A DNA stretch of 40,607 nucleotides from a virus (taxonomy: Duplodnaviria; Heunggongvirae; Uroviricota; Caudoviricetes), in the IMG/VR virus record IMGVR_UViG_2675903253_000012; one strand, 5' to 3'. Positions 2,794 to 40,517 of this stretch are shown in pieces (position 1 is the first letter of the stretch; every line of letters begins with the position of its first letter). The position numbers and the translations under genes were made by a program. The notes below the pieces were generated by a model. It made no database searches. It worked only from the letters and a program-made list of their open reading frames with translations, and was not told where the DNA came from.

Positions 2794-5386
2794 TTGCATA
2801 TTCCTTAGCCCAGCGGGGCAGTGATAACGTCTTAATAGCTGGCCATTCATCGGTATTGAGGCAGTCAGCCAGGGTTCGCAGATTGCGGTGATATTCCAGC
2901 TGACCTGCCAGTTTTGCTTCTTCGCCCATCATGAAAATTTCAACCGGATAACGTCCGCATTCAATAGTTGTGCTGGCAACCAGAAAAACGAAAGTTGGCT
3001 GCACTCCAAACTGTGCTTCATAACCGTCACTGTAGAATGCATCCTGAACGTGATAGCGGTAGTCGTAATAAGCGGTTTTGAATCGTTGAATATCCGCCGT
3101 AGTTTTCACGTCCATGATCCAGTGAAATTCAGGGATAATTTTGTCCGGACGGCACCGACACAAAATTGCTGTTTCAGGATCTTCCCAGTAAATTGATGAT
3201 TCAGCGTGTCCGGCGCTTTCAACAAGCCATTGCCCCAGCGGCAAAGCCATAACGCTCTGATACATGAGTTCAATTTTCCGGCCTTCTTCGGCAGTGATAA
3301 CCGTTTTTCCTGTGCTTGCGCATTCCCTCAGAAACGCTTTCTCTTCTTCTTTTCCGGAGTTTGTCCGGCGGTTAAATTCAGGTGCTACGATAAAGCGGTT
3401 ACTGAATTCTTCCGGCTCAAGTACCCGGCAGTGGAAAGCGGTTCCTAAATCGAGCGTTTTTGTCTTTGTGGTGTCCACGGGGGCATTTTTACGCCACAAA
3501 TACAGTGCCGGAGTATCAGCAATGTCATCGAGCTGAGACTTACTGACACCGGGACCCGCGTGGTAATTCTCATTCGAAATTCCGTAATAAATACCTGGCT
3601 CTATGTCTTCTACGATTACGGGATCTGCGACTTCGCCAGTTTCATCACTGCAATCGCGATGCGGATCGCTGCCAGCATTCTCATTGTGCGGATGTTCAGC
3701 GCCTTCCATTTCCTCCGGATCATTTTCCTTAGCTTCAACCTGACTCTCTTCATCGAATGTTTCCTGGTATGTTGCGTCGCCCATCACCGCACCACAGTCA
3801 GGGCAGTTATCCCCGCCAGTCTGGCCGCAGGCATTGCAGGCTATTTCCGGTTCCTGTTGCACTACTGGCTCAGGTTGATTCATATCCGGGCTGGTTTTTT
3901 CCGTTTCTGGCTGGTTCTGGTACACACAATCGCGAGTCTGGATCCCCTTTACCCATTTCGGATCGTTCGGGTCGCTAATTCCGTCAACAAATTCACCACG
4001 TGATGCAGCAAGCAATTTATCGGCATCGACAGGATTTTTTGATGGAATGTTTTTCCGGGCTTCATGGAGTTCTGCCCGCAGTTCCTGATATTTCGCATCA
4101 ACAGAATTTACCTGTGACTGAGCATCCAGCGGCTGCGTGTCCTGATGATGTTCAGTTGCGTCCGGTTCCATTGTTTCAGCCTCTCCCTGTTCAACTGCCG
4201 TTGTTCCAGATGGTTGCGGTTTTTCTTCATCATCCTGTTTTCCTTCTTCTGTTACTCGCTGCGGCATCGGGGCAGAGGAGCGACCGCAGGCAATATCCAC
4301 GATTTCCGGATCAGGGTTGGCATGATCGGTTTCAGTCAGTACTTTGTTCAGATATTCAGTGACGTGCGCGGGGATGACCTCGATCCCAATTGGTGCTTCT
4401 TTTACGGACGCAACCACGATGGCGCGGGAATAATCCAGCCCGCCAGGCATGGTGATGAATTTGTCGCGGAAAACAGAAAAGGGCGGTTTATTTTCAGCGA
4501 TAATTTCCTCAATGCGTTTAGCGTGTGCCGGATGAAGGTTATAGATGTCCAGATCCATTGAACGGGCCAGTACGCCAGTGGCTACGTCCCGCGCCAGTGA
4601 CGTCAGATCGTGTACGAAACCTTCGCCGCGATCGGTGAGGTTTCCGCCGCCAGCATTAGCACCGGAAGCCGTGCGAGTGATGTGTGAAACACGATTACCC
4701 TTCATCCACTCTTTTGTCAGCAGTCCTCGATCGGTGTAGTCAGCGTTCAGGTATGCTTCGAAAAAAGCAGTTATCAGTCCCAGGTTTGAATTACCAGGAT
4801 TAGGGAAAACTTTGTCAGTGTCACGAACCAGTTTGTGGAGTTCGCGAATTTCCAGCGGGTCGAGCAGGCTGGTTTTGTGGGAAACAGCCAGGGCAGTAAC
4901 AGCCGGTAGTTCTTCAGCCCGAGCAATGTGTAATGCCTGGAGTCCGTCGCGTGAAACGTGCGTTACCGGTTTTTCGCTGCCGTGTTGAGCAAGCCAACGA
5001 ATGGGCAGTTCCTGGCCAGAAATTGGGAGTAGCATATTCTCCTCAATCTCAGTCATGTCTTCGCCGTTGACGTTGGTATTGCCTTGATAGTGAGCGTTGT
5101 CTGGTGCTGCTCCCGGTTTTAGTTCCCATGTCATGGAGTCTTTGCTGAGTTGATAGCGTTCACTCCAGGTAAAATCGATCTCACCTTCAGCGGGCAGGTC
5201 ATTAACGACAGGAAAATTCGTGGCAACAGCTTTAAAATAGCTGCTCAGTTTTTTACCTGACTTAACGATCAGGTAGTCCAGAGTGGCACAGGTCGATTCA
5301 AAATCGTTGCTTGCCCACAGGACGACGTCAGGTTCACCGGATGATTTTTTCGCTTTCCGTAACAGGAAGAGTGGTTTTGTGCTCAT
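2786..5386 (-). CDS. recE: Exodeoxyribonuclease VIII RecE, 866 aa
   Basis: 866-aa ORF; acidic central region and C-terminal nuclease domain; matches recalled RecE; recE-recT operon arrangement. Confidence 0.95.
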
Positions 5387-5487
5387 TGTTTTTTAACCTC
5401 AACTCAGATTAAAATTCGTTTTGTTCAGTGAATGATCTTGCCGGATACACACTGTTCATAGCCTGCGCCATACGCAGGCTATTTCTT

Positions 5488-5763
5488 TCAGATTTCACCT
5501 TTTAATTTCATTGCAATTAGAGTTGCCAGAAATTCGGCTTTTTTTTCTGCGGGCAGATTCTTTCCGATATGCACCAGGCACATTTTTTTGACACCTTCAT
5601 CAAGTGTTTTTACGTTGCCTGATGGACCATCGATATCAACCACAGTGAATGGGGTTTCTTTATTTTCTGTTTTAATTACGTAGCCAATGCGCTTTCCTTC
5701 CAGATTCACCTCGTGAACAATGTCATCGGTAGTTACAACAGTGGCTTCATAATTGGTAATCAT
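5488..5763 (-). CDS. racC: RacC-like small protein, 91 aa
   Basis: MITNYEATVVTTDDIVHEVNLEGKRIGYVIK... matches recalled RacC; start set at internal Met of the 107-aa ORF. Confidence 0.8.
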   Translation of the reverse strand: MITNYEATVVTTDDIVHEVNLEGKRIGYVIKTENKETPFTVVDIDGPSGNVKTLDEGVKKMCLVHIGKNLPAEKKAEFLATLIAMKLKGEI

Positions 5764-5837
5764 GTTTTTCTCCTTAATTAAGGTTGAGCGAATACCTGCC
5801 ATTTCTGGCATAAATTCAGTTTCGAATAGTCAATTAA

Positions 5838-6008
5838 TTAAAGTTCATGTGCCATCTGGTCTTTTTCGGCACAAGCTTCACTGCAATATTTTCTCGGTTC
5901 GTCTTTTGATAAAATCCCGTGCATGAAGTGAAGCATTCTTTCAATAGCTTTGCTTTCTTCAACGTCTTTTTTGCAAAGGTGGTAAGCACATTTTATTTTC
6001 TTAGTCAT
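5838..6008 (-). CDS. ydaE: YdaE-like small Cys-rich (zinc-binding) protein, 56 aa
   Basis: Hand translation [56 protein letters not shown]; ATGA start/stop overlap with kilR. Confidence 0.6.
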   Translation of the reverse strand: MTKKIKCAYHLCKKDVEESKAIERMLHFMHGILSKDEPRKYCSEACAEKDQMAHEL

Positions 6009-8931: not shown

Positions 8932-9789
8932 ATGCTGTTTGTGCTTATTCTAAGCCACCGGGCAGCATCATACGGGGCAATTATGGCCGCATTACCATAC
9001 ATGCAACTGTACATAGCTGATTACCTGGCTGACACCATGCATTTGTCAGCAGAGGAGCATGGTGCGTATTTGTTGCTGATGTTCAATTACTGGCAAACAG
9101 GAAAGCCAATACCTAAAAACAGGCTGGCAAAAATTGCCCGTCTGACTAACGAGCGATGGGCTGATGTTGAACCATCCTTGCAGGAGTTTTTTTGCGATAA
9201 CGGCGAGGAATGGGTGCATCTTCGGATTGAGGAAGATCTGGCATCAGTCAGGGAAAAATTAACCAAAAAATCAGCCGCAGGAAAAGCATCTGTTCAGGCC
9301 AGAAGAAGCAGAAAGGAAGCAGATGTTCAAACAAAACAAGAGAGAAATTTAACAGGTGTTCAAACAGATGTTGAAGTGGTGTTTGAACATGATGTCAACA
9401 CAAAGGCAACTAATAAAGATACAGATAAAGATCTAAAAACAGATCCCCCCCTAAATCCCCCCCGGGGGAATCGAGGTGTCAAAAAGTTTGACCCTCTGGA
9501 TATTGCTTTGCCGAACTGGATTTCTGTCTCGCTTTGGCGTGAGTGGGTTGAATTTCGCCAGGCATTGCGAAAACCGATTCGAACGGAGCAGGGCGCTAAC
9601 GGGGCGATACGGGAACTGGAAAAATTCCGTCAGCAGGGTTTTACACCTGAGCAGGTGATTCGACACAGCATCGCCAATGAATACCAGGGCTTGTTCGCGC
9701 CGAAAGGTGTTCGACCTGAGACGTTACTCCGACAGGTTAACACCGTCTCGTTACCGGATAGTGCGATCCCGCCAGGCTTCAGGGGGTAA
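8932..9789 (+). CDS. ydaU: YdaU-like replication-module protein (DUF1376); true start may be the internal MAALPYMQLY Met near 8983
   Basis: Conserved LPYMQLYIADYLADT N-terminal motif of DUF1376 phage proteins; directly upstream of DnaC-like gene. Confidence 0.75.
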   Translation: MLFVLILSHRAASYGAIMAALPYMQLYIADYLADTMHLSAEEHGAYLLLMFNYWQTGKPIPKNRLAKIARLTNERWADVEPSLQEFFCDNGEEWVHLRIEEDLASVREKLTKKSAAGKASVQARRSRKEADVQTKQERNLTGVQTDVEVVFEHDVNTKATNKDTDKDLKTDPPLNPPRGNRGVKKFDPLDIALPNWISVSLWREWVEFRQALRKPIRTEQGANGAIRELEKFRQQGFTPEQVIRHSIANEYQGLFAPKGVRPETLLRQVNTVSLPDSAIPPGFRG

Positions 9790-9795
9790 CTGACC

Positions 9796-10542
9796 ATGAA
9801 AAATATTGCGACAGGCGACGTTCTTGAACGTATCCGCAGACTGGCCCCGTCACATGTAACCGCGCCATTCAAGACGGTAGCGGAGTGGCGCGAGTGGCAA
9901 CTTTCCGAAGGCCAGAAACGTTGTGAGGAGATCAACCGTCAGAATCGTCAGTTGCGGGTGGAAAAAATTCTGAATCGCTCTGGCATCCAGCCATTGCACC
10001 GCAAATGCTCGTTTTCGAATTACCAGGTGCAGAACGAAGCGCAGCGATACGCGTTGAGTCAGGCGAAATCCATCGCTGATGAACTGATGACCGGGTGTAC
10101 AAATTTTGCGTTCAGCGGAAAACCTGGTACCGGGAAGAATCACTTAGCGGCAGCTATCGGGAATCGCCTGCTGAAAGACGGTCAGACAGTGATTGTGGTT
10201 ACCGTGGCTGATGTTATGAGTGCCCTGCACGCCAGCTATGACGATGGGCAGTCAGGCGAAAAATTTTTGCGGGAACTATGCGAAGTGGATCTGCTGGTTC
10301 TTGATGAAATTGGCATTCAGCGCGAGACGAAAAACGAGCAGGTGGTGCTGCACCAGATTGTTGATCGCCGGACAGCGTCGATGCGCAGCGTGGGGATGCT
10401 GACAAACCTGAACTATGAGGCCATGAAAACATTGCTCGGCGAGCGGATTATGGATCGCATGACCATGAACGGCGGGCGATGGGTGAATTTTAACTGGGAG
10501 AGCTGGCGTCCGAATGTCGTCCAGCCAGGAATTGAGAAGTAA
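9796..10542 (+). CDS. ydaV: DnaC/IstB-like AAA+ replication helicase loader (YdaV-like)
   Basis: Walker [16 protein letters not shown] and Walker [10 protein letters not shown] motifs visible in the translation. Confidence 0.88.
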
Positions 10543-10564
10543 TTTTTACCGGGAGGAAATTTTT

Positions 10565-11326
10565 ATGGAGACTGTTTTTGACGCACTGAAAGCAATGGGA
10601 AAAGCCACATCCATAGAACTTGCTGCGCGACTTGATATCAGTCGTGAAGAAGTGCTGAACGAACTATGGGAACTGAAAAAAGCTGGTTTCGTTGATAAAA
10701 GCGCGTACACCTGGCGTGTGGCTGATAACAACGTTCAGCAGGAACAGCCAATGCAGGCAGAACTGCCGGAAGAAACCACCACGGCAACTGTAGTGAAAAT
10801 CTCAGAGTGCGATTTAACCGCGACGATTGAACAACGCGGACCACAAACGGCGGATGAACTGGCTACGCTGTTCGGTACAACATCCCGCAAAGTTGCTTCA
10901 ACGCTGGCAATGGCAATCAGCAAAGGACGCCTGATTCGCGTAAACCAGAACAGTAAATTTCGTTACTGCATGCCGGGCGATAATTTACCAGCAGAGCCGA
11001 AAGCTGCATCGGTAGCGGAAACTGATGGTAAAGCCTTTCCTCAGCCAGCCGGTGTTGCGTTACCAGTACAGGAAGCGGCAACACAGGAAGATATTAAAAC
11101 AGAAACTGTGGCGGACATTGTGCAGTCGCTGCCATCGTTTACTGAAACGCAAGCGGATGACCTAGTTTTACCATCGCTGCATATGGCAAACCGCGAACTG
11201 CGTCGGGCGAAAAATCATGTCCAGAAGTGGGAGCGAGTCTGCGCCGCGCTGCGGGAGCTGAACAAGCACCGGGATATTGTCCGACAGATTGTCGATTCCT
11301 CCAGTCGTATTGTGTCGGAAAAGTGA
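10565..11326 (+). CDS. YdaW-like protein (DUF1627), probably starting at [13 protein letters not shown]
   Basis: ORF following the DnaC-like gene as in Rac (ydaW is a pseudogene in K-12; intact here); internal Met start chosen. Confidence 0.6.
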
Positions 11327-11341
11327 TTGCCGGAGGCGCTT

Positions 11342-11758
11342 ATGGCAAAAGTTTTTACACAGGAAGAGCGTGAAAAAATTAAGGAGCAGGTTGTTGAGTT
11401 GGTACGCCAGAGTGGGCGCGAGACGTTAAGGCAACTGGAGGCCAAGACAGGTGCGACAAGATATCTGATGAGCATTCTTGCCAGAGAGTTGGTTGCCAGT
11501 GGCGATGTATACAACTCTGGTTACGGGTTATTCCCGTCTGAACAGGCGCGTAAGGATTGGAAAAACGCCCGCAAAAAACTATCCAGGGCAAAGGTGAAAA
11601 AAACGGTTGTGGTTGATCCTGACCTTATCTGGTCATTACCAGACGGAGAAATACGCCGCTATGACAGGCGTCAGAACATAATCTGTCGCGAGTGCCGGAA
11701 GAGTGAAGTTATGAAACGTGTACTGGCATTTTATCAAGGAAATCTTCGGTATTTATAG
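11342..11758 (+). CDS. Hypothetical protein, 138 aa, with C-terminal CxxC
   Basis: ORF with ggagg Shine-Dalgarno 6 nt upstream of ATG 11342; backbone-like GC content; no recognisable family. Confidence 0.5.
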   Translation: MAKVFTQEEREKIKEQVVELVRQSGRETLRQLEAKTGATRYLMSILARELVASGDVYNSGYGLFPSEQARKDWKNARKKLSRAKVKKTVVVDPDLIWSLPDGEIRRYDRRQNIICRECRKSEVMKRVLAFYQGNLRYL

Positions 11759-11894
11759 ACGTTACTAGATCAAAGAGCATTAGTTCATATGTAAATTGAC
11801 ATTTTTCTGGCACAGGGGAGAGCTAGCGTGGTTGTCCGCTTTGTGCCAATAGCGGACATTGCTGGCTCATGGTATGTTAGTTTAAGGAGGCAGG

Positions 11895-11923
11895 TTATGC
11901 CCTGTATTTCGCTGTGGTATAAT
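11895..11923 (+). promoter_or_regulatory. Candidate sigma70 promoter with extended -10 (TGgTATAAT) driving the cargo operon
   Basis: Perfect TATAAT at 11918-11923 preceded by TG at 11915-11916; weak -35 TTATGC at 11895-11900 (17-bp spacer); followed by aggga Shine-Dalgarno and GTG start at 11957. Confidence 0.5.
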
Positions 11924-11956
11924 AGTTGCGCAATTGATACAAGGGAGCGTTACATC

Positions 11957-12919
11957 GTGAAAATTGTTTTCGAGGTTAATGGAAAGAAAGTTCCACTAAA
12001 ATCTTTAAAATACATAAGCAAAAAAGATCAACTCGAAGTAATGAAAAACTGGTTCTTTGAAAACTTTGAAGATCCGGCAAATGCTTGTCCGTATGAAAGT
12101 AGAGAAGGTGGCTATGCTTACATATATGGCGGGCCGTATGATGCGAGCGAAGAACTACAATCCATCTTCGGTCAATATGTTAAATCTGAGTATATTGAGG
12201 AATTAGTAGATGAATTACAAACACAATGTTTTGACTGGTCTGGAAACTCAAATAATATAGATGATTGGTACGATGATGATATCTACGACGCTGTAACGTC
12301 TTCCGGTAATCCGTATTTAAAATTCATTGATAATATCGATAAAATAAAAAAACTTGCAAAAGATAAAACTGAACAACAGCAAAAAAACCACTTGCTTAGT
12401 TTGCTCTACACGAATGTTATTACAGCTTTGGAAACGCTTTATGTTGAGCTATTCATTAATTCTATAGAGAAAGATGATGTCTACATAGCCAATTGTATAG
12501 AAAAAGGTAAGACTGAATTTAAAGTAAGCAAAGATATTGCTGCGTTGCCTTTCAAGGGTGAACCCATCGAGAAAATTAGGGGAGAGCTAATCAGGTCAAT
12601 CAAGGAACACTTGATCAGTGCAAGCTGGCATAGCACTAAAAAGGTAATCGACCGCTATGAAGCTACATTCGATATAAAAGTACAAAAAGACTGTCCGATA
12701 GAAGCTATTGAATTGGCAACCCTCAATCGAAATCACTTAGTGCATCGTGGTGGAAAGGATAAAGAAGGGAACCTCGTAGTGATTACAGACCAGGATCTTG
12801 AAACGCTGATTGAAAATGCATCGAACCTGGCAATTATGCTCTACAACAGTTTAAATGTAGCAACGAATAAAACCACCATTTTGCAACCAGATGACAAACC
12901 GTTCATTCATGAATTTTAA
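11957..12919 (+). CDS. Cargo protein A, about 320 aa, uncharacterised, with C-terminal HEPN-like R-N-x-x-x-H motif (putative RNase); ORF is open from 11828 but the promoter-proximal GTG at 11957 is the likelier start
   Basis: AT-rich ORF; motif LNRNHLVHRGG encoded at 12728-12745 matches the HEPN R[NHQ]xxxH signature near the C-terminus of a predicted helical region; 15-nt spacing to the downstream gene suggests an operon. Confidence 0.6.
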   Translation: MKIVFEVNGKKVPLKSLKYISKKDQLEVMKNWFFENFEDPANACPYESREGGYAYIYGGPYDASEELQSIFGQYVKSEYIEELVDELQTQCFDWSGNSNNIDDWYDDDIYDAVTSSGNPYLKFIDNIDKIKKLAKDKTEQQQKNHLLSLLYTNVITALETLYVELFINSIEKDDVYIANCIEKGKTEFKVSKDIAALPFKGEPIEKIRGELIRSIKEHLISASWHSTKKVIDRYEATFDIKVQKDCPIEAIELATLNRNHLVHRGGKDKEGNLVVITDQDLETLIENASNLAIMLYNSLNVATNKTTILQPDDKPFIHEF

Positions 12920-12934
12920 TAGCGCAGGTCATAC

Positions 12935-13936
12935 ATGGATATTCGCACACGAAAGACAAAATTTTTAGAGTCGTTAGATTCAACTGAAGTGATACGCAAA
13001 GCAGTAAGTCTCGCTATAGATTGCATTATTGATAATCATAATAGTAATGAAGATACCCCCTTAGTTATTACCAGCTATGATGATCTCTGTAGAATCCAGG
13101 TGCTAAATTATGTACAGGAGTTTTGCGAAGCTGCATTCCCTGATATGGATGAATATTACTTTAGTCCTAACATACTTCGCATCAACGGCAAGACTAGTGA
13201 AGAAGCTTGTATTAACTTAATTAAACTCTTAAGAAGTACAAAAGGCATGCTATTCTGGTCCGATGCCCCATCGTGGTTCGCTAGCCTCCCCGACGGATTA
13301 TTCCATGTTGTTAACATTGATCAAAAAATCGTTACTCGCGGCCTTAATAAGAAAAACTCTAAGCCGACAATAATCAATAAAGATTACAGTGTAGATACAC
13401 TACTATCAGAGCTATTTTTGAATGGCGCACACATGGAGCAACCCAACGTACACAACGTTTCTGAGGGAAACATGAAGTTCTATGATGAATGCCATGCTGG
13501 ATTAATCAGACCAATACCCGCTCCAATAGGCGCGTCATACGATGAAGAGATCACAATTAATTCTCCAGATTGGCAAAAGCTCGCGTGTGTAGCTTTACGC
13601 CGCTATCAGTCGAAGGAATGTCATGACGGAATGCAATGGGATACAACCGATCATGGTTGGACTGATGTAATCGCGTATCCATTCGTCGAAGAAATACAAT
13701 CAATGGATAATAGTGGTTATCGACAATGTTTAGTTGGGCTGGTCACAATAAACAATTCAAATGCAAATTCTCCGTACCTATCTACCGTTTGGATACATCC
13801 ATTTTATCGCAGGAGAGGGTTATTAAGTAAGTTATGGCCAAAATTACAAGAGTTATATGGAAGTAACTTCGAAATTGAGCGACCTAATGAAAATATGAAA
13901 GCATTTCTGAAAAGTGCGAAACACGCAGATTACTAA
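12935..13936 (+). CDS. Cargo protein B, 333 aa, uncharacterised partner of protein A
   Basis: AT-rich ORF 15 nt downstream of A on the same strand; no Walker motifs seen; C-terminal segment VWIHPFYRRRGLLSKLW only weakly resembles an acyl-CoA-binding loop. Confidence 0.6.
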   Translation: MDIRTRKTKFLESLDSTEVIRKAVSLAIDCIIDNHNSNEDTPLVITSYDDLCRIQVLNYVQEFCEAAFPDMDEYYFSPNILRINGKTSEEACINLIKLLRSTKGMLFWSDAPSWFASLPDGLFHVVNIDQKIVTRGLNKKNSKPTIINKDYSVDTLLSELFLNGAHMEQPNVHNVSEGNMKFYDECHAGLIRPIPAPIGASYDEEITINSPDWQKLACVALRRYQSKECHDGMQWDTTDHGWTDVIAYPFVEEIQSMDNSGYRQCLVGLVTINNSNANSPYLSTVWIHPFYRRRGLLSKLWPKLQELYGSNFEIERPNENMKAFLKSAKHADY

Positions 13937-14119
13937 TTTATGAATCAGTCTGTGGAGTTAGGGTTGGTGTGAACAAGTAGGGTAAGAGCCTCAACGTGAT
14001 GCTATGCCGACCTGCTCCCTGAGAATTCACACAGAAGGCTGCTAGCAATGTCTGCAGATCGCTCAAAGCGGACTAAAATGTTGGCTTGTTTCTGACTTAG
14101 AGCATTTAAGGAAGTGCTG

Positions 14120-14338
14120 GTGGTGACTGGTTGTTGTGTTCCATTTCTACAGAATAAAATCACAGAAACTATACCCAATAGTTGTATTGAATCACTGACG
14201 AGACAGCCTCATATTTATCAGGACTGGTGTGCGTCTAATACAGGGGGTTGTCGTGCTGGTTCTCAAATGTGCGCTGGCTATTGCGGCTGTAATGGCAATT
14301 TATTGTCTTGCTGTTGTTCTTATGGAGCGGCTTTCTGA
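14120..14338 (+). CDS. Possible small Cys-rich peptide (about 72 aa, 11 Cys), speculative
   Basis: ORF with aagga Shine-Dalgarno 7 nt upstream of GTG 14120; Cys-rich C-terminus ...GGCRAGSQMCAGYCGCNGNLLSCCCSYGAAF; could still be a chance ORF. Confidence 0.25.
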   Translation: MVTGCCVPFLQNKITETIPNSCIESLTRQPHIYQDWCASNTGGCRAGSQMCAGYCGCNGNLLSCCCSYGAAF

Positions 14339-14488
14339 TTGATTACATACTGGCTAGAAAAAAGGTGTTACCTTGGTTTATCTTTGTCCGGCAAGGTGCG
14401 CTCATTAATCTTAAGTAAATTTATTGCTCAAGTATTCAGATTACTTCTTATGGTTGAAGTCTCCTGTCAATGTAGAACCAATATATTT

Positions 14489-14527
14489 ACAAAAATGAGA
14501 CCCGTCGGGGATAGCCCTGCCGGGTCT
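14489..14527 (-). terminator. Rho-independent terminator for the YeaR-like gene
   Basis: Inverted repeat agacccg...cgggtct (14499-14527) followed on the minus strand by a U-run (complement of acaaaaatg), about 30 nt past the stop of the minus-strand gene. Confidence 0.5.
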
Positions 14528-14556
14528 GACTGTTAAAGCATTTTTAATATGATCAT

Positions 14557-14895
14557 CTATTTTTTGGTGCTATAGACTTTTTCGCCCGAAAAGTCTGGAG
14601 CGACCCAAAAGTTAATATTAAACTGAGCATCATCGCTTAGTTCAACACGGTGCCAGTATTGTGGTGGGCTTGTTGCAAAAGCGCCAGCATTAATGACTAC
14701 TTTTATCTCCGGTTCAGTAGCATTCTCATCAGTAAAACCATAATATGTTACAGTGCCTTCCATTACGCACAACTGCCCAAAAACACCTGCTGCTGTATTA
14801 TGATGTGTTAATAACGCTGAAGGTACGTTCTCTTTTGTGAAGAACGGAGTTGAGCGTTTGATTACCCAATCTTTAGGAATTCTCTTGTGTGTCAT
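14557..14895 (-). CDS. YeaR-like DUF1971 (TehB-associated cupin-like) protein, cargo gene
   Basis: Translation MTHKRIPKDWVIKRSTPFFTKENVPSALL...YYGFTDENATEPE...AGAFATSPPQYWHRVE...FNINFWVAPD parallels recalled E. coli YeaR motifs (RSTPF, EP, AG.FA.PP..WH, FNI.FFVAPE). Confidence 0.7.
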   Translation of the reverse strand: MTHKRIPKDWVIKRSTPFFTKENVPSALLTHHNTAAGVFGQLCVMEGTVTYYGFTDENATEPEIKVVINAGAFATSPPQYWHRVELSDDAQFNINFWVAPDFSGEKVYSTKK

Positions 14896-15708
14896 AACCA
14901 CCTCCTCCAAAACATGCATTAAAAATGCATCTTTTGGAGGGTTATGTCAAGCTGTTATGAAACACATAATTGATATGTTGATTAGAGGAGAAGATAGAAT
15001 AAATATGGTTGTTTTTCGTATAACTATTTGTTTTACTTTTAGTTTATGCATTCTGTGTGTTAGGAATAAGTTATTAAAGTTTAATCAAAAAATCTCGATG
15101 TAGTCCACATAGATTACTGTTACTGAACCTTATTGTGTGTATTAGTTGTGTTCTGAAATTTCAGCTTAATTATTTATGATGTATTTTTTAACGATAAATA
15201 TTTTCCCAGGATACCTTTACTGTGTATATAAATAAATTATATACGCATAAATAATGTAAAGGCGTCCTTTTAGATATATCTTATCAAATGTTAATGACTT
15301 GAGTGGGAAATATGATTCCAGCAACTTATCATGTGGCTACTTTATAAAAATAATGCCCATATAAAACAACAAGCGAAAAGGATTACGGATAAAAAAGGAG
15401 CGAGATGTGCGAACTTGTTATTTTCCATGTTTAACCACCTTAAATAATTGATGATGACGGGATGATTGCATCTGTAATGCTTTTATTGAAATGTTATGAT
15501 AAAAAAGAACTTTTGCATAACATTAAAATGTAATTTATCTAATCGTTTTTAATAATAAGTGTCGTATTTCTATCCTTGTACCAGCTATTTGATATGTAGT
15601 GTTTGTTCATGCTATGTGGGGCTTTACACCATAGCCAGTTTATTTATACTTTATTCGTCAGCCTGAACAACTGGCATCTGCTGCGCTGCGCCATCGAGAG
15701 ATTGAGAA

Positions 15709-16308
15709 ATGGCGCATATACAACTGGTCAAACAAACCTCTTCTGGTTTACTTCTCCCGGCGACGCCGGAGAGTTGCGATTTTCTGCATCAAATCAAAAT
15801 AGGTGAGTGGATACACGCAGACTTTAAGCGTGTGTGTAACTACGCATTCCACAAGCGTTTTTTCAAACTCCTGCAACTGGGTTTCGATTACTGGACTCCG
15901 GTCGGTGGGGCGATCACGCCTCGCGAACGAGAACTGCTGTCTGGTTTCGTTGATTACCTGTGCGAATCAGTTGGTCGGGAACACACGCCAGCCCTGAGTG
16001 ATGCCGCAGAGCAATACCTTAACACCGTTGCGACTCGTAGAACCCGGGATACGGCGTTGCTAAAGTCGTTTGAGGCTTTCCGCGAGTGGGTAACCATTCA
16101 GGCCGGATTTTACACCGAGCATATTTATCCGGACGGTAGCCGTGGGCGTCGGGCAAAATCCATCGCTTTTGCGAATATGGACGAAGTCGAGTTTCAGCAG
16201 GTTTATAAATCTGTACTGAATGTGCTGTGGAACTGGATTCTGTTCCGTAAATTCTCCTCTCAGGAGGAAGTTGAAAATGTGGCCGCACAACTACTGGAGT
16301 TTGCGTAA
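15709..16308 (+). CDS. nin-region protein, DUF1367 (YbcN-like)
   Basis: 199-aa ORF preceding DUF1364 and Q-like genes; recalled similarity to DLP12 YbcN family. Confidence 0.65.
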   Translation: MAHIQLVKQTSSGLLLPATPESCDFLHQIKIGEWIHADFKRVCNYAFHKRFFKLLQLGFDYWTPVGGAITPRERELLSGFVDYLCESVGREHTPALSDAAEQYLNTVATRRTRDTALLKSFEAFREWVTIQAGFYTEHIYPDGSRGRRAKSIAFANMDEVEFQQVYKSVLNVLWNWILFRKFSSQEEVENVAAQLLEFA

Positions 16309-16598
16309 TGGTGAATTTACGTAAAGCGGCTAAAGGCCAGATGTGCCAGATCAGAATCCCTGGCTACTGCAATCACAATCCCGAAACCTCTGTGCTGGCG
16401 CATTACAGGCTGGCGGGGACGTGCGGAACAGCGACAAAACCACATGATATGCAGGCGGCGATAGCCTGTAGCTCATGCCACGATCTAATCGACGGGCGGG
16501 TAAAAACCAGCGATTACACCAAAGAAGAATTGCGCCTGATGCATGCTGAAGGGGTTTTTCGCACACAAGAAATCTGGAGAAAGAAAGGTCATTTATGA
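16308..16598 (+). CDS. nin-region protein, DUF1364 (YbcO-like, Cys/His-rich putative nuclease)
   Basis: 96-aa ORF MVNLRKAAKGQMCQIRIPGYC...CSSCHDLIDGR with conserved Cys/His; ATGA overlap with upstream gene. Confidence 0.65.
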   Translation: MVNLRKAAKGQMCQIRIPGYCNHNPETSVLAHYRLAGTCGTATKPHDMQAAIACSSCHDLIDGRVKTSDYTKEELRLMHAEGVFRTQEIWRKKGHL

Positions 16599-17137
16599 TT
16601 TACCCAACGAATACAGGAAAAAGCGGAGAACACCTTCGCCTCACCACGCTGGAAAGTGTCTGGATTCAGGGAAAACTACGTATGTGGGGGCGCTGGTCGT
16701 ATATTGGCGGTGGCAGGTCAGGGAATATGTTCAATCAGTTGTTGGCATCCAAAAAACTGACGAAAACAGCCATTAATGAAGCCCTGCGCAGAATGAAAAA
16801 AGCGGGAATAGAGAAAGCTGAGCTGGAAGCGTTTTTGCGAGAGATGATCAACGGCAAGCAAAAGAGCTGGCTGGCGCATTGTACTGATGCAGAGGCGTTA
16901 TGTATTGATCGAGTCATAAGTGAGGTGCTGGCAGAGCATCCAGGATTGATTTGCATTCTCCGGCAACGCTATGAAGGGCGGGGGATGACTAAGCGCAAAA
17001 TGGCTGAATTGCTAAATGATGCACACCCAGAGTGGTGTTTTAGCACATGCGAAAAACGGATTGCTAATTGGTTAGCTGTTGCTGAGTATGCCCTATATAT
17101 TCCCATGCGTGAATCATTTGCTGAGAAAATGGCTTGA
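16595..17137 (+). CDS. Putative late-gene antiterminator (Q-like), assigned mainly by position
   Basis: 180-aa ORF immediately upstream of a strong intrinsic terminator and the lysis cassette, the canonical position of lambdoid Q; not lambda-Q-like in sequence as far as I can tell. Confidence 0.55.
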   Translation: MIYPTNTGKSGEHLRLTTLESVWIQGKLRMWGRWSYIGGGRSGNMFNQLLASKKLTKTAINEALRRMKKAGIEKAELEAFLREMINGKQKSWLAHCTDAEALCIDRVISEVLAEHPGLICILRQRYEGRGMTKRKMAELLNDAHPEWCFSTCEKRIANWLAVAEYALYIPMRESFAEKMA

Positions 17138-17590: not shown

Positions 17591-18122
17591 GGGCTGGTTT
17601 ATTGTATGCCAAATGATTATTAAAAAGGTTGTGTTAATAACAAGATCCGAAATAATATGCCTGCATATTTTTATCTTGCTTATATTCTGCATATTGTGCA
17701 TAGCAGGCTCATCCCTGCAATCAAAACTGTATGATGAGTATTTTTTGTTTTCCTTTTTTCCAGTCATCTGATGATGACCTGCTTCTTTTTAATCCGGATC
17801 GACATCAGTTTTTTAAGATAATTCCTGCGAGTTATATGCATAAATGCCACAAACTCCGCATTTTATGTGGTTGGGAGTTGCCGGGCGCGCAGTGAGTTTG
17901 CTAAGAAAACTCCTGCATGGTGAATCCCCCTGTGCGGTGGGGTGATACCATTAACCTTTTCTGTCGCCGACAGGTATCACGAACATTTTGTTCACCGGGA
18001 GGCACCCGGCACCATGCACTTCAATAGATTCTCTCCACATTATGGATATTCTTTCAGAATATCCCACGCAGACTTTGTGTAAATGTTAACAAATGTGCGT
18101 TTTATTTGATCTGATTCGCTGT

Positions 18123-18610: not shown

Positions 18611-18760
18611 TATTTATTGTTTTGTAATAAACGGTTTCGGCTTAGGTTTGTTCTGACACAGCTACGGCACTGAGCTAAATTTAGCGGATAGTCAGCTCTG
18701 AGCCAGTGGCGGACGTAACAACTACTATTGCTGAGATTTTAATGGATTGAGGAGCAAGAA

Positions 18761-38183: not shown

Positions 38184-38514
38184 TACGGAAGAATTTCACT
38201 GGTTACCAGAGGATGGAATGAAAACAGAAAATAAACCATCGATAAAAACTGTAAGATTTGGTGATGGTTATGAGCAACGAAGTCCAAATGGACTTAATCA
38301 TTCTCTGCGCGTTTTCACCTGTGATTTCAAAGTTGAGGCGAATGAACGTGATTCATTTGAAAAATTTTTAGCCCGGCATGAAGGCTATAAATCTTTTTTT
38401 TGGCGCCCGCCGGGTATTAACAGAAAAATCAGAGTGGTGTGTCGAACGTGGTCAGCGACAGAACATATCACCTATACCGATTTTTCGTGTCAGTTTGACG
38501 AAGTGGTGATCTGA
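38176..38514 (+). CDS. Minor tail protein M (lambda gpM-like)
   Basis: [16 protein letters not shown]...[16 protein letters not shown] parallels recalled lambda gpM. Confidence 0.85.
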
Positions 38515-39212
38515 TGCAGGACATACAACAGGAAACGCTGAATGAATGCATTCGTGCGGAGCAGTCGGCCAGCGTGGTGCTCTGGGAAATCGACCTGACC
38601 GAGGTAGGCGGGGATCGCTACTTTTTCTGCAATGAGCAGAACGAGAAAGGAGAGTCTGTCACCTGGCAGAGTCGGCAGTATCAGGCCTATCCCATTCAGG
38701 GGAGTGGATTTGAGATGAACGGCAAAGGTGCCAGTGCAAGGCCAACGCTGAAAGTCTCTAATCTGCACGGCATGGTCACCGGGATGGCGGAAGACCTGCA
38801 GAGTCTGGTCGGCGGAACGGTGGTCAGGCGTAAGGTTTACGCCCGTTTTCTGGATGCGGTGAACTTCGTCAACGGAAACAGTGACGCCGATCCGGAGCAG
38901 GAGGTGATCAGCCGCTGGCGTATTGAGCAGTGCAGCGAACTGAGCGCGGTCAGTGCCTCCTTTGTACTGTCCACGCCGACGGAAACGGACGGCGCTGTTT
39001 TTCCGGGGCGCATCATGCTTGCTAATACCTGCACCTGGACCTATCGCGGTGATGAGTGCGGTTATCACGGTCCGGCTGTCGCGGATGAATATGACCAGCC
39101 AACGTCCGACATCACGAAGGATAAATGCAGCAAATGCCTGAGTGGCTGTAAGTTTCGCAATAACGTCGGCAACTTTGGCGGCTTCCTTTCCATTAACAAA
39201 CTTTCGCAGTAA
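38514..39212 (+). CDS. Minor tail protein L (lambda gpL-like)
   Basis: 232-aa ORF with C-terminal Cys cluster, gene order M-L-K-I-J. Confidence 0.85.
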   Translation: MQDIQQETLNECIRAEQSASVVLWEIDLTEVGGDRYFFCNEQNEKGESVTWQSRQYQAYPIQGSGFEMNGKGASARPTLKVSNLHGMVTGMAEDLQSLVGGTVVRRKVYARFLDAVNFVNGNSDADPEQEVISRWRIEQCSELSAVSASFVLSTPTETDGAVFPGRIMLANTCTWTYRGDECGYHGPAVADEYDQPTSDITKDKCSKCLSGCKFRNNVGNFGGFLSINKLSQ

Positions 39213-39217
39213 ATCCC

Positions 39218-39912
39218 ATGACAGAGACAGAATCAGCGATTCTGGCGCACGCCCGGCGATGTGCGCCAGCGGAGTCGTGCGGCTTCGTGGTGAGAACACC
39301 GGAGGGGGAAAGATATTTTCCCTGCGTGAATATTTCCGGTGAGCCGGAGGAGTATTTCCGGATGGCTCCGGAGGACTGGCTGCAGGCAGAGATGCAGGGT
39401 GAGATTGTGGCGCTGGTCCACAGCCACCCCGGTGGTCTGCCCTGGCTGAGTGAGGCCGACCGGCGGCTGCAGGTGCAGAGTGATTTGTCGTGGTGGCTGG
39501 TCTGCCGCGGGGCGATTCACAAGTTCCGCTGTGTGCCGCATCTCACCGGGCGGCGCTTTGAGCACGGGGTGACGGACTGTTACACGCTGTTCCGGGANNN
39601 NNNNNNNNNNNNGGTCAGAATCTCTATCTGGATAATCTGGAGGCCACAGGGCTGTATCAGGTGCCGTTGTCAGCGGCGCAGCCGGGCGATGTGCTGCTGT
39701 GCTGTTTTGGTTCATCGGTGCCGAATCATGCCGCCATTTACTGTGGTGACGGCGAGCTGCTGCACCATATTCCTGAACAACTGAGCAAACGAGAGAGGTA
39801 TACCGACAAATGGCAGCGACGCACACACTCCCTCTGGCGTCACCGGGCATGGCACGCATCTGCCTTTACGGGGATTTGCAACGATTTGGCCGCCGCATCG
39901 ACCTTCGTGTGA
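39218..39912 (+). CDS. Tail assembly protein K (lambda gpK-like; JAB/MPN plus NlpC/P60), interrupted by the N-run
   Basis: N-terminal HSHP motif ALVHSHPGG; C-terminal LCCFGSSVPNHAAIY; the 15-nt N-run at 39598-39612 leaves frame and length across the gap uncertain. Confidence 0.7.
39598..39612. other. Assembly gap (15 N)
   Basis: Run of n characters in the sequence. Confidence 1.
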
Positions 39913-40457
39913 AAACGGGGGCCGAAGCCATCCGGGCACTGGCCACACAGCTCCCGGCATTTCGTCAGAAACTGAGCGACGGCTGGTATCAGGTGCGCAT
40001 TGCCGGGCGTGATGCAGGCGAAAATGAATTATCTGCCCGTCTTAATGAACCGCTGGCAAATGGTGCCGTGATCCACATCGTTCCGCGTCTGGCGGGTGCC
40101 AAAAGTGGCGGTGTGTTTCAGGCGGTGCTGGGTGCGGCGCTGATTGCGGTGGCATGGTGGAACCCTGTGGGCTGGCTGGGGGCCGCGGCTGTATCGGGTA
40201 TGTATGCAGCAGGGGCCAGTATGATCCTGGGTGGTGTGGCGCAGATGCTGGCACCGAAAGCCAGGACGCCCACGGCAGCCAGTACAGATAACGGCAAACA
40301 GAACACGTATTTCTCGTCACTGGATAACATGGTTGCCCAGGGTAATGTTCTGCCTGTTCTGTACGGGGAAATGCGCGTGGGGTCACGTGTGGTTTCTCAG
40401 GAGATCAGCACGGCAGACGAAGGGGACGGTGGTCAGGTTGTGGTGATTGGTCGCTGA
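39810..40457 (+). CDS. Tail assembly protein I (lambda gpI-like)
   Basis: MAATHTLPLASPGMARICLYGDLQRFGRRIDLRVKTGAEAIRALATQ... matches recalled lambda gpI; overlaps 3' end of K. Confidence 0.85.
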   Translation: MAATHTLPLASPGMARICLYGDLQRFGRRIDLRVKTGAEAIRALATQLPAFRQKLSDGWYQVRIAGRDAGENELSARLNEPLANGAVIHIVPRLAGAKSGGVFQAVLGAALIAVAWWNPVGWLGAAAVSGMYAAGASMILGGVAQMLAPKARTPTAASTDNGKQNTYFSSLDNMVAQGNVLPVLYGEMRVGSRVVSQEISTADEGDGGQVVVIGR

Positions 40458-40517
40458 TGCAAAATGTTTTATGAGAAACCGCCTGCGGGCGGTTTTGTCG
40501 TTTATGGAGCGTGAGGA

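Follow-up and report, generated by a model that had tools for sequence, protein, structure and literature searches.

Is the AT-rich tract at positions 11760-15700 of the viral record IMGVR_UViG_2675903253_000012 a single acquired island, or was it put together from parts with separate histories? The whole stretch of DNA analyzed, a 40,607-nt tailed-phage (Caudoviricetes) sequence referred to below as the window, is a Rac-type lambdoid prophage of Escherichia coli, with RefSeq relatives that are 99.9% identical over 11300-16400. The original prediction, made from the sequence alone, described a horizontally acquired insertion of about 4 kb at a variable prophage locus. The variable site and the accessory nature of the DNA were upheld by our analysis, but the single insertion was not. 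We place a probability of roughly 0.85 on the reading that the tract is an accessory ("moron" or defense) hotspot between the replication and nin-like/Q modules, with a mosaic structure that contains two independently exchangeable cassettes, the first of which is the published anti-phage system DS-33.

The mosaic structure is seen in breakpoints against four related prophages, which split the tract into four parts (Table 1). Compared with LD39-1, a prophage of the same type with other cargo, homology ends at 11856 and restarts at 14025. In an ST95-type Qin-like prophage homology extends over 11332-14357 and is followed by hokD. The hokD-type relative L005 is homologous over 14059-14357 and again from 15341, and homology with AR_0067 restarts at 14560. 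The cassettes assort independently, with the ST95-type prophage combining the operon of cassette 1 with hokD and LD39-1 combining a 3HP-like operon with DUF1971.

Table 1. Features of the hotspot and its two backbone anchors, in window coordinates.
Feature	Position	Strand	Description
DUF977/Ren-like gene	11342-11758	+	138 aa; closes the replication module and anchors the hotspot on the left backbone side
Conserved left flank	11759-11833	+	Common to prophages with different cassettes; divergence just past the L motif in the 17-class alignment
L boundary motif	11834-11857	+	GTCCGCTTTGTGCCAATAGCGGAC; 6-bp inverted arms, 12-nt centre
Cassette 1, DS-33 anti-phage defense operon	11858-14049 (approx.)	+	38.5% GC; delimited by breakpoints
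Extended -10 element, TGgTATAAT	11915-11923	+	Promoter-like by sequence; in cassette 1, 34 nt upstream of the gene A start
Gene A (DS-33A)	11957-12919	+	WP_014639476.1, 320 aa, GTG start; HEPN/RES N-terminal domain 1 and RiboL-PSP-type HEPN domain
Gene B (DS-33B-like)	12935-13936	+	WP_000354966.1, 333 aa; ~190-aa N-terminal domain and C-terminal GNAT acetyltransferase fold
R boundary motif	14050-14073	-	Plus strand GTCTGCAGATCGCTCAAAGCGGAC; inverted counterpart of L
Conserved spacer	14074-14357 (with R motif, 14050-14357)	+	43% GC; normally upstream of hok
Chi site	14116-14123	+	GCTGGTGG; 43 bp right of the cassette 1 boundary
Candidate small membrane-peptide gene	14253-14342	+	29 codons, VLVLKCALAIAAVMAIYCLAVVLMERLSD; hydrophobic, overlaps the Cys-rich ORF, purifying selection
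Cassette 2, YeaR-like DUF1971 module	14358-15340	-	34.8% GC; delimited by breakpoints against L005
Intrinsic-terminator-like hairpin and U-run	14488-14527	-	After DUF1971; GC-rich stem, then UCAUUUUUGU
DUF1971 (YeaR/TehB-N-like) gene	14557-14895	-	WP_000149055.1, 112 aa; Pfam E-value 2.6e-26
NsrR-type 11-1-11 operator (predicted)	14911-14933	+	AACATGCATTAAAAATGCATCTT; 15 nt upstream of the DUF1971 start codon
DUF1367 leader	15341-15708	+	33% GC, non-coding, conserved AT-rich backbone; promoter-like site at 15623-15650
DUF1367 gene	15709-16308	+	Right anchor, where the nin-like/Q backbone begins; Pfam E-value 1.4e-96

The distribution of these parts was determined in 5426 complete E. coli genomes. 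The whole arrangement is present in only 13 (at least 97.6% identity), the two-gene operon in 209 (nearly all at 99% identity or more, in two different lambdoid prophage types) and the DUF1971 tract in 450 at 80% coverage or more. A junction query, about half of which is spacer, matches 3667 genomes, among the matches listed mostly through its spacer half. Related prophages do not carry the operon and the DUF1971 tract uniformly, both being polymorphic for presence and absence. We consider it very improbable that the whole 4 kb derives from one acquisition, or that its low GC content is a functional property of the backbone such as H-NS-silenced regulatory DNA. The uniformly low GC content between 11.8 and 15.7 kb would fit either proposal, and the 13 genomes that share the full arrangement would fit a single island; however, the parts differ in distribution and recombine independently, and the spacer (43% GC) and the DUF1367 leader (33% GC) are both conserved backbone despite their different compositions.

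The compositional contrast on which the island was first recognized was itself borne out by sliding-window GC and third-codon-position GC (GC3) analysis. The tract has a GC content of 37.7% compared to 46.8% for the remaining window, with flanks at 49.7% (8932-11758) and 49.1% (15709-17137), and no 3.9-kb stretch of the window has a lower GC content apart from those that overlap it. GC3 values are 0.35 for gene A, 0.36 for gene B and 0.36 for DUF1971, versus 0.46-0.61 for seven backbone genes (ydaU, ydaV, DUF1627, DUF977, DUF1367, YbcO and Q). AT-richness is here a mark of foreign origin. The long AT-rich non-coding tract that had been counted as part of the cargo is present, with 30.5% GC and no annotated gene over 14920-15708, but its final 368 bp are the DUF1367 leader and belong to the backbone: many prophages without the DUF1971 module have this segment ahead of DUF1367, at 76-95% identity. 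The promoter-like site in the leader has the sigma-70-like form TTTACA-16-TATACT.

Whether other cargo occupies the same site, a question that the original prediction had proposed to settle by alignment of Rac-like prophages, was answered with at least 16 alternative fillings. Viral contigs (109) were gathered with a conserved 27-mer of the spacer, and the distance from the end of DUF977 to this anchor fell into at least 16 discrete classes in about 70 loci, DS-33 being the commonest (16 loci). Insert GC content across the classes is 0.33-0.50 and mostly below 0.40, and gene orientation inside the cassettes is mixed. Fillings related to known families include NUDIX-like (PDC-S07) and HAD-like genes (1621-bp class), PD-T7-3 (2006 bp, E-value 3.5e-168), an AbiH-like gene (2811 bp), the 3HP genes Hp1, Hp2 and Hp3 (3488 bp; 5e-41, 1e-10 and 4e-11), an adenosine deaminase with ITPase-like and SIR2/ThsA-like genes (3644 bp), a Lit-like gene (4191 bp, 1.3e-18) and Tmn (4262 bp, 6.9e-57). 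AR_0067 carries a BstA-like KilA-N protein, and a record named DH5alpha has DUF262 and AAA ATPase genes at the site within the same spacer-hok-DUF1367 backbone. The largest classes carry transporter or metabolic cargo. A truly empty site was not found; the nearest to it, a 403-bp remnant in strain A20, retains the ends of the AbiH-like cassette (300 bp).

Several cassettes have no match to known defense families, and these are therefore cheap candidates for new systems. Proteins without a PADLOC match were seen at the hotspot in L129, L202, L170, L172, L123 and L111 (classes 1163, 1424, 2378, 3406, 5434 and 6047), and for classes 1163, 1424 and 3406 this was true of every protein tested. The sizes of the unmatched proteins, candidate uncharacterized defense genes, include 269, 248, 471, 379, 417, 447 and 317 aa. 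The slot is mapped to the nucleotide, with a catalog of at least 16 alternative cassettes.

The predicted two-gene operon was recovered as two ORFs, gene A and gene B, and these identify cassette 1 as DS-33 ("GNAT"), an anti-phage system reported with DefensePredictor (Science 2026) as the pair WP_014639476.1 and WP_000354965.1 and listed as "defensive TRUE" (PMC13092281 Table S6). Gene A is identical to DS-33A over 320/320 residues, and gene B is identical to DS-33B at 332/333 residues, with proline at position 289 in the window and leucine in DS-33B; gene order and spacing are the same. The source of DS-33 is a strain of the E. coli reference collection. In the published plaque assay in E. 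coli, the whole operon gave log10 protection values of 3.8 against T7, 3.3 against T3, 4 against Bas67, 5 against Bas26 and 0.8 against T5; with the GNAT gene deleted these were 4.8, 3.3, 4, 5 and 1.7, and with the HEPN gene deleted 0.1, -0.5, 0, 0.5 and 0.5, in the same order (PMC13092281 Table S7). An R258A substitution, by which the paper showed R258 to be essential, reduced protection to 0.8 against T7 and 0.4 against T5. These plaque counts indicate that the HEPN protein is necessary and that the GNAT gene is not needed in that assay. The published protection was recorded for the reference-collection pair, with an identical gene A and the L289 allele of gene B. The main text of the paper does not deal with a prophage hotspot, boundary motifs or the mechanism of DS-33 (PMC13092281).

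Gene A is a predicted HEPN ribonuclease (RNase). Its RNHLVH sequence conforms to the Rx4H motif, with R258 and H263 invariant in 44 homologues. An AlphaFold2 model (mean pLDDT confidence 84.7) shows a four-helix HEPN fold, for which the best matches among solved structures are HEPN proteins, the closest folds including HepT toxins. Profile evidence is weaker: gene A scores 22.2 bits against Pfam HEPN_RES_NTD1 (PF18870), where the cut-off is 27.4, and does not match HEPN_RiboL-PSP (PF18735). A homologue with 59% identity (P0061) scores 28.5 against a cut-off of 28.4 for RiboL-PSP and 26.8 for NTD1, and many gene A homologues carry both PF18870 and PF18735 in precomputed annotations. Searching the sequences of solved structures with family profiles of genes A and B returned no match, and PADLOC matched none of five island ORFs, genes A and B included (E <= 0.01). 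The PHROGs families into which the island proteins fall are of unknown function.

The same domain family and Rx4H motif are found in component B of PD-T4-2 and in other RiboL-PSP-type HEPN proteins (PF18735, PF18870), a family to which DS-33A was linked by HHblits with a probability of 96 at 55% coverage (PMC13092281); the partner gene of PD-T4-2 differs from gene B, and gene A lies below the Pfam cut-off. Gene A also resembles the prophage-borne HEPN defenders HepS of Salmonella Gifsy-1 (PMC13043305) and Tha of Staphylococcus aureus prophages (PMC11087260), solo action having been shown for HepS. Tail-tip proteins trigger HepS, an anticodon nuclease that acts by abortive infection. In its lambdoid prophage, HepS maps to a cluster of accessory genes that separates the replication genes from the regulators of the late genes (PMC13043305), a position equivalent to that of gene A here. 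HepS homologues are shorter than 250 aa, carry R100/H105 and, unlike gene A, lack N-terminal domain 1; the two are likened by description and not by sequence. Gene A homologues with 28-76% identity occur without gene B in 80 species-representative genomes, and no other recurrent partner gene was found among their neighbors. From these neighborhoods, gene A homologues behave as single-gene systems, like solo HepS. We propose that gene A would be a self-contained sensor-plus-RNase abortive-infection protein, its mode of action and RNA target being those suggested by the family, in which the N-terminal domain would keep the HEPN nuclease at the C terminus switched off until a phage infects. Gene B would be a separable second module, either an independent defense gene or a modulator of gene A.

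Expression of the operon may be driven by the extended -10 element within the cassette (Table 1). This element is kept as TGgTAtAAT or TGgTAcAAT in a Serratia copy of DS-33 and in four diverged metagenome copies, reads TGaTAcAAT in the Aeromonas copy, and is absent from the most diverged copy (L229). No recognizable terminator was found in cassette 1. Of the marks of a moron, an accessory transcription unit with its own promoter and terminator that varies among related phages, presence/absence polymorphism was observed for both cassettes, a promoter-like element in cassette 1 and a terminator-like element in cassette 2.

Gene B begins 15 nt after the end of gene A. In its predicted structure, a GNAT fold with the acetyl-CoA-binding beta4-alpha3 segment was found; the best Foldseek matches are HAT1 and MYST-type protein acetyltransferases, although the overall superposition is poor. 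Its N-terminal domain has no informative Pfam or fold match. Residue P289 sits in the GNAT cofactor-binding segment and is invariant in 42 gene B homologues, and the L289 allele is found on 31 contigs compared to at least 1000 for the P289 allele of the window. Because the tested L289 allele alters an invariant residue and is rare, the published "dispensable" result may describe a crippled gene B. GNAT dispensability rests on a minority allele, and the common allele present here deserves a retest.

It is also conceivable, though in our judgment quite improbable, that the operon is a toxin-antitoxin (addiction) pair stabilizing the prophage, with the HEPN RNase as toxin and the GNAT protein as antitoxin or neutralizing modifier, on the analogy of HEPN toxins that a modifying partner controls. 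HEPN RNases are common as toxins, HepT toxins are among the solved folds closest to gene A, and genes A and B are closely spaced and co-diverge. Single published measurements gave about one log more protection against T7 and T5 when gene B was deleted (PMC13092281). In a Citrobacter/Enterobacter island (L090-L092), gene B is intact (5001-6002) but gene A upstream of it is reduced to its last 64 codons (4791-4982), as expected if loss of a toxin is tolerated. However, the GNAT-deleted strain was viable and defended normally (PMC13092281), and gene A homologues occur without gene B or any conserved partner in the approximately 80 species above; given both observations, a strict toxin-antitoxin relation is unlikely. 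Moreover, gene B homologues with 62% identity or less occur alone in integrative and conjugative elements (ICEs) and other loci, an 86%-identical gene B alone forms a cassette bounded by L and R (L224), and the operon is absent from most Rac-type prophages. The MNT nucleotidyltransferase fold expected of a HepT-MntA partner was sought in gene B and not found, the GNAT fold being present instead.

The hotspot cassettes end in a pair of inverted 24-bp motifs, L and R (Table 1), which belong to a family with the consensus GTCCGCTTTG[T/A]GC[C/G]AA.AGCGGAC. When 17 cassette classes were aligned, the sequences diverged immediately after L (GTCCGCTTTGTGCCAAnAGCGGAC) and converged again at R. The arm beside the cassette varies with the cassette, and the outer arm and centre track the flank. 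In L003, R agrees at 21/24 positions with the L motif of the window when the latter is reverse-complemented. In shuffled sequence, the strict arm pattern was matched 0.02 times and the fuzzy consensus 0.0 times. Members of the motif family were found in prophages, islands, an ICE, a plasmid and a chromosomal site (L090, L216-L227, L240, L351, L353, L356 and L357). A literature search for the motif strings or for such a motif pair found no description. A weaker third copy of the motif is present in the window at 18691-18714, between the two TolA-like genes.

Several other interpretations of the motifs were rejected. The cassette is not an invertible segment of the kind bounded by serine invertase sites, as 0/279 pairwise cassette matches were inverted; L and R are not halves of one long hairpin or a co-evolving pair, as no covariation was detected; and the motif is not a repetitive extragenic palindromic (REP/REPIN-type) repeat, as the junction query occurs once per genome, in 53/5426 genomes at blastn sensitivity. 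An exact 15-mer of the L motif retrieved many viral loci without DUF977 upstream. Several of these contain R-L junctions, so that chance would not account for all of them and some are probably genuine copies outside the hotspot.

The most likely route of exchange would be recombination within the conserved DNA on either side, near a conserved Chi site, by which lambdoid phages that reside together or infect would swap cassettes, with the exchange always resolving at the 24-bp motif pair. Several points weigh against this account of the hotspot and of DS-33. Homologous exchange alone leaves unexplained why unrelated cassettes end at the same 24-bp motifs, and it leaves unexplained why DS-33 keeps these motifs in unrelated chromosomal, island and ICE contexts. 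Gene B may contribute more than the published test suggests. Finally, within the clade of gene B sharing 73% identity or more, gene A precedes gene B in the copies with enough upstream sequence, nearly always with the same 15-nt spacer, the exceptions being L224 and the island copies L090-L092. The two proteins co-diverge, with 84-100% identity for A and 78-100% for B; that linkage and spacing persist while the proteins diverge by about 20% speaks for a degree of functional coupling between A and B.

A rival reading is that the cassettes are units of a dedicated site-specific system, with L, R and the R-spacer-L junctions serving as recombination sites loosely like those of integron attC arrays, at which an enzyme would insert, excise or swap accessory or defense cassettes in prophages, islands, ICEs, plasmids and chromosomes; we hold this proposal as a tentative possibility. 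L and R mark the exact divergence points in all 17 classes compared, and no motif is expected by chance. Both motifs are retained by DS-33 copies of other genera (91-98% identity) although the surrounding DNA is unrelated; one such copy lies between sugar-utilization and LysR/beta-lactamase genes with no mobile-element gene within 8 kb. In L090, the DS-33 remnant is the middle of three tandem cassettes (L..R|L..R|L..R) beside a P4-type integrase. The joint between tandem cassettes consists of R, a conserved stretch of 14-18 nt and L, and in the 3.3 Mb of sequence retrieved, 25/25 motif pairs that lie close together have this order. An E. coli ICE and a plasmid also have junction-like sequence between defense-like genes, and the motif flanks cassettes of gene B homologues (44-46% identity) in marine contigs. 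On the other hand, no recombinase travels with the cassettes, there is no clean empty single site (the near-empty one keeps 300 bp of another cassette), none of the 279 pairwise comparisons gave an inverted cassette, L and R do not covary within a cassette or junction, gene orientation is not uniform, and no Rfam family was matched. The motifs could instead be RNA-level insulators or stabilizers that mark the end of conserved DNA.

The likeness to integrons lies in tandem cassettes, short imperfect palindromic junctions and cargo that is often defense genes. The differences are the lack of an integron integrase and of an attC-type Rfam match, mixed gene orientation, the absence of attC core boxes in the one junction read by eye, and a junction composed of two separate 24-bp hairpin motifs without covariation. 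A broader proposal is that the L/R motifs and R-spacer-L junctions define an undescribed family of mobile cassettes in Gammaproteobacteria, often with defense genes and moved by a dedicated mechanism into prophages, genomic islands, ICEs, plasmids and plain intergenic sites of chromosomes, in which the Rac hotspot is a docking site and DS-33 a passenger. We consider this unlikely. The boundary motifs could explain how hotspots of this kind are loaded, a question that concerns defense islands generally. In Aeromonas caviae (L093-L095), a DS-33 pair (A 86% and B 79% identical) is carried on a relaxase-bearing element beside a SIR2 and cREC_REC pair, and no L/R motif was detected there.

Returning to the preferred reading of an exchangeable hotspot, this kind of locus, a variable accessory slot of lambdoid prophages that separates replication from late-regulator genes, is well known, and its main cargo here is already published and validated. 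The P2/P4 hotspots likewise place many alternative, mostly AT-rich defense systems at a fixed position between conserved genes, and 3HP, first described there, fills the present site in another Rac-type prophage. The P2/P4 hotspots differ in phage family and flanking genes, and in the present case each cassette ends in the 24-bp inverted motif pair. The placement of the hotspot follows from gene order in RefSeq relatives, Pfam and PHROG, which put the tract at the junction of the replication module and the nin-like/Q module. RefSeq order begins with recE, racC, kilR, sieB, a repressor/cro pair, ydaT, ydaU, ydaV, DUF1627 and DUF977, continues with two hypothetical genes, DUF1971 on the opposite strand, DUF1367, a YbcO-family gene and the Q-like DUF1133 gene, and closes with two TolA-like genes, essD, rrrD, rzpD and trkG. 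Pfam agrees on the backbone gene families of the window and identifies YbcO and then the Q-like DUF1133 gene downstream of DUF1367. The left anchor gene (11342-11758) is annotated in RefSeq relatives and matches Pfam DUF977 (E-value 3.3e-31) and PHROG 142, "Ren-like exclusion protein" (E-value 1.3e-46).

Cassette 2 occupies the place of hokD, as nearly every locus has either hokD or DUF1971 downstream of the spacer and a few carry both (e.g., L152, and L004 outside the survey). A tblastn search with HokD found nothing in the window, though it matches most related loci, and Rfam searches found no Hok or Sok RNA family. The cassette was predicted to contain an opposite-strand YeaR-like DUF1971 gene with its own terminator, and both elements were confirmed, the gene by its Pfam match and the terminator-like element as a hairpin and U-run with a predicted folding energy of -19.4 kcal/mol (z -2.16). 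The only NCBIfam match obtained is that of the DUF1971 protein to the TehB N-terminal region, with an E-value of 5e-13 and a score below the cut-off.

Upstream of DUF1971, the predicted operator agrees at 21/23 positions with the NsrR site of ytfE (AAGATGCATTTAAAATGCATCTT), which is the strongest NsrR site of E. coli (sites from PMC5320621 Table 4). The NsrR pattern AAGATGCATTT-N-AAATGCATCTT has one match in the window where 0 are expected, and a comparable palindrome is present at the same place in 21/22 prophage DUF1971 loci. Because NsrR is known or predicted to act on yeaR and tehA (PMC5320621), the DUF1971 cargo gene is probably de-repressed by nitric oxide, as judged from this operator sequence. 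DUF1971 shares with the NsrR-regulated yeaR-yoaG genes (PMC5320621) both its family and an 11-1-11 NsrR-type palindrome just upstream, but it is a lone gene on a prophage, and no yoaG partner was seen.

The Cys-rich small ORF that had been proposed as part of the cargo does exist, as a 74-codon frame at 14114-14338 in the spacer, but it is very unlikely to be a gene, since it fails the coding test. Among 36 unique sequences, it shows 12 synonymous versus 40 non-synonymous variants; some of the sequences lack its start codon, and in one the frame is interrupted by a stop. The overlapping 29-codon ORF shows 10 synonymous versus 7 mostly conservative non-synonymous variants in the same 36 sequences, compared to about 2 synonymous and 14 non-synonymous variants for the same stretch in the Cys frame by a hand tally. 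AGGAGG precedes the GTG of this ORF by 5 nt in most variants, the window having AGGGGG, and a few records call the product a "putative membrane protein." In most loci the spacer is followed by hokD, and this position just upstream of hok suggests a small membrane peptide, possibly toxin-like.

The spacer also contains a Chi site, which is kept in 104/112 related loci. Given Chi polarity, RecBCD-dependent exchange would be stimulated leftwards from this site, into the cassette. The window has four Chi sites in all, each on the plus strand.

Searches of Rfam at gathering thresholds, and again at E <= 1, gave no credible match in 11500-16000. Elsewhere in the window, two small RNAs scored above the gathering threshold, the RalA antitoxin RNA at 1557-1735 (225 bits) and STnc100 at 17885-18071 (86.6 bits). 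At the right end of the window, the GC content jumps to 57-58% (38501-40500), unlike the rest of the prophage.

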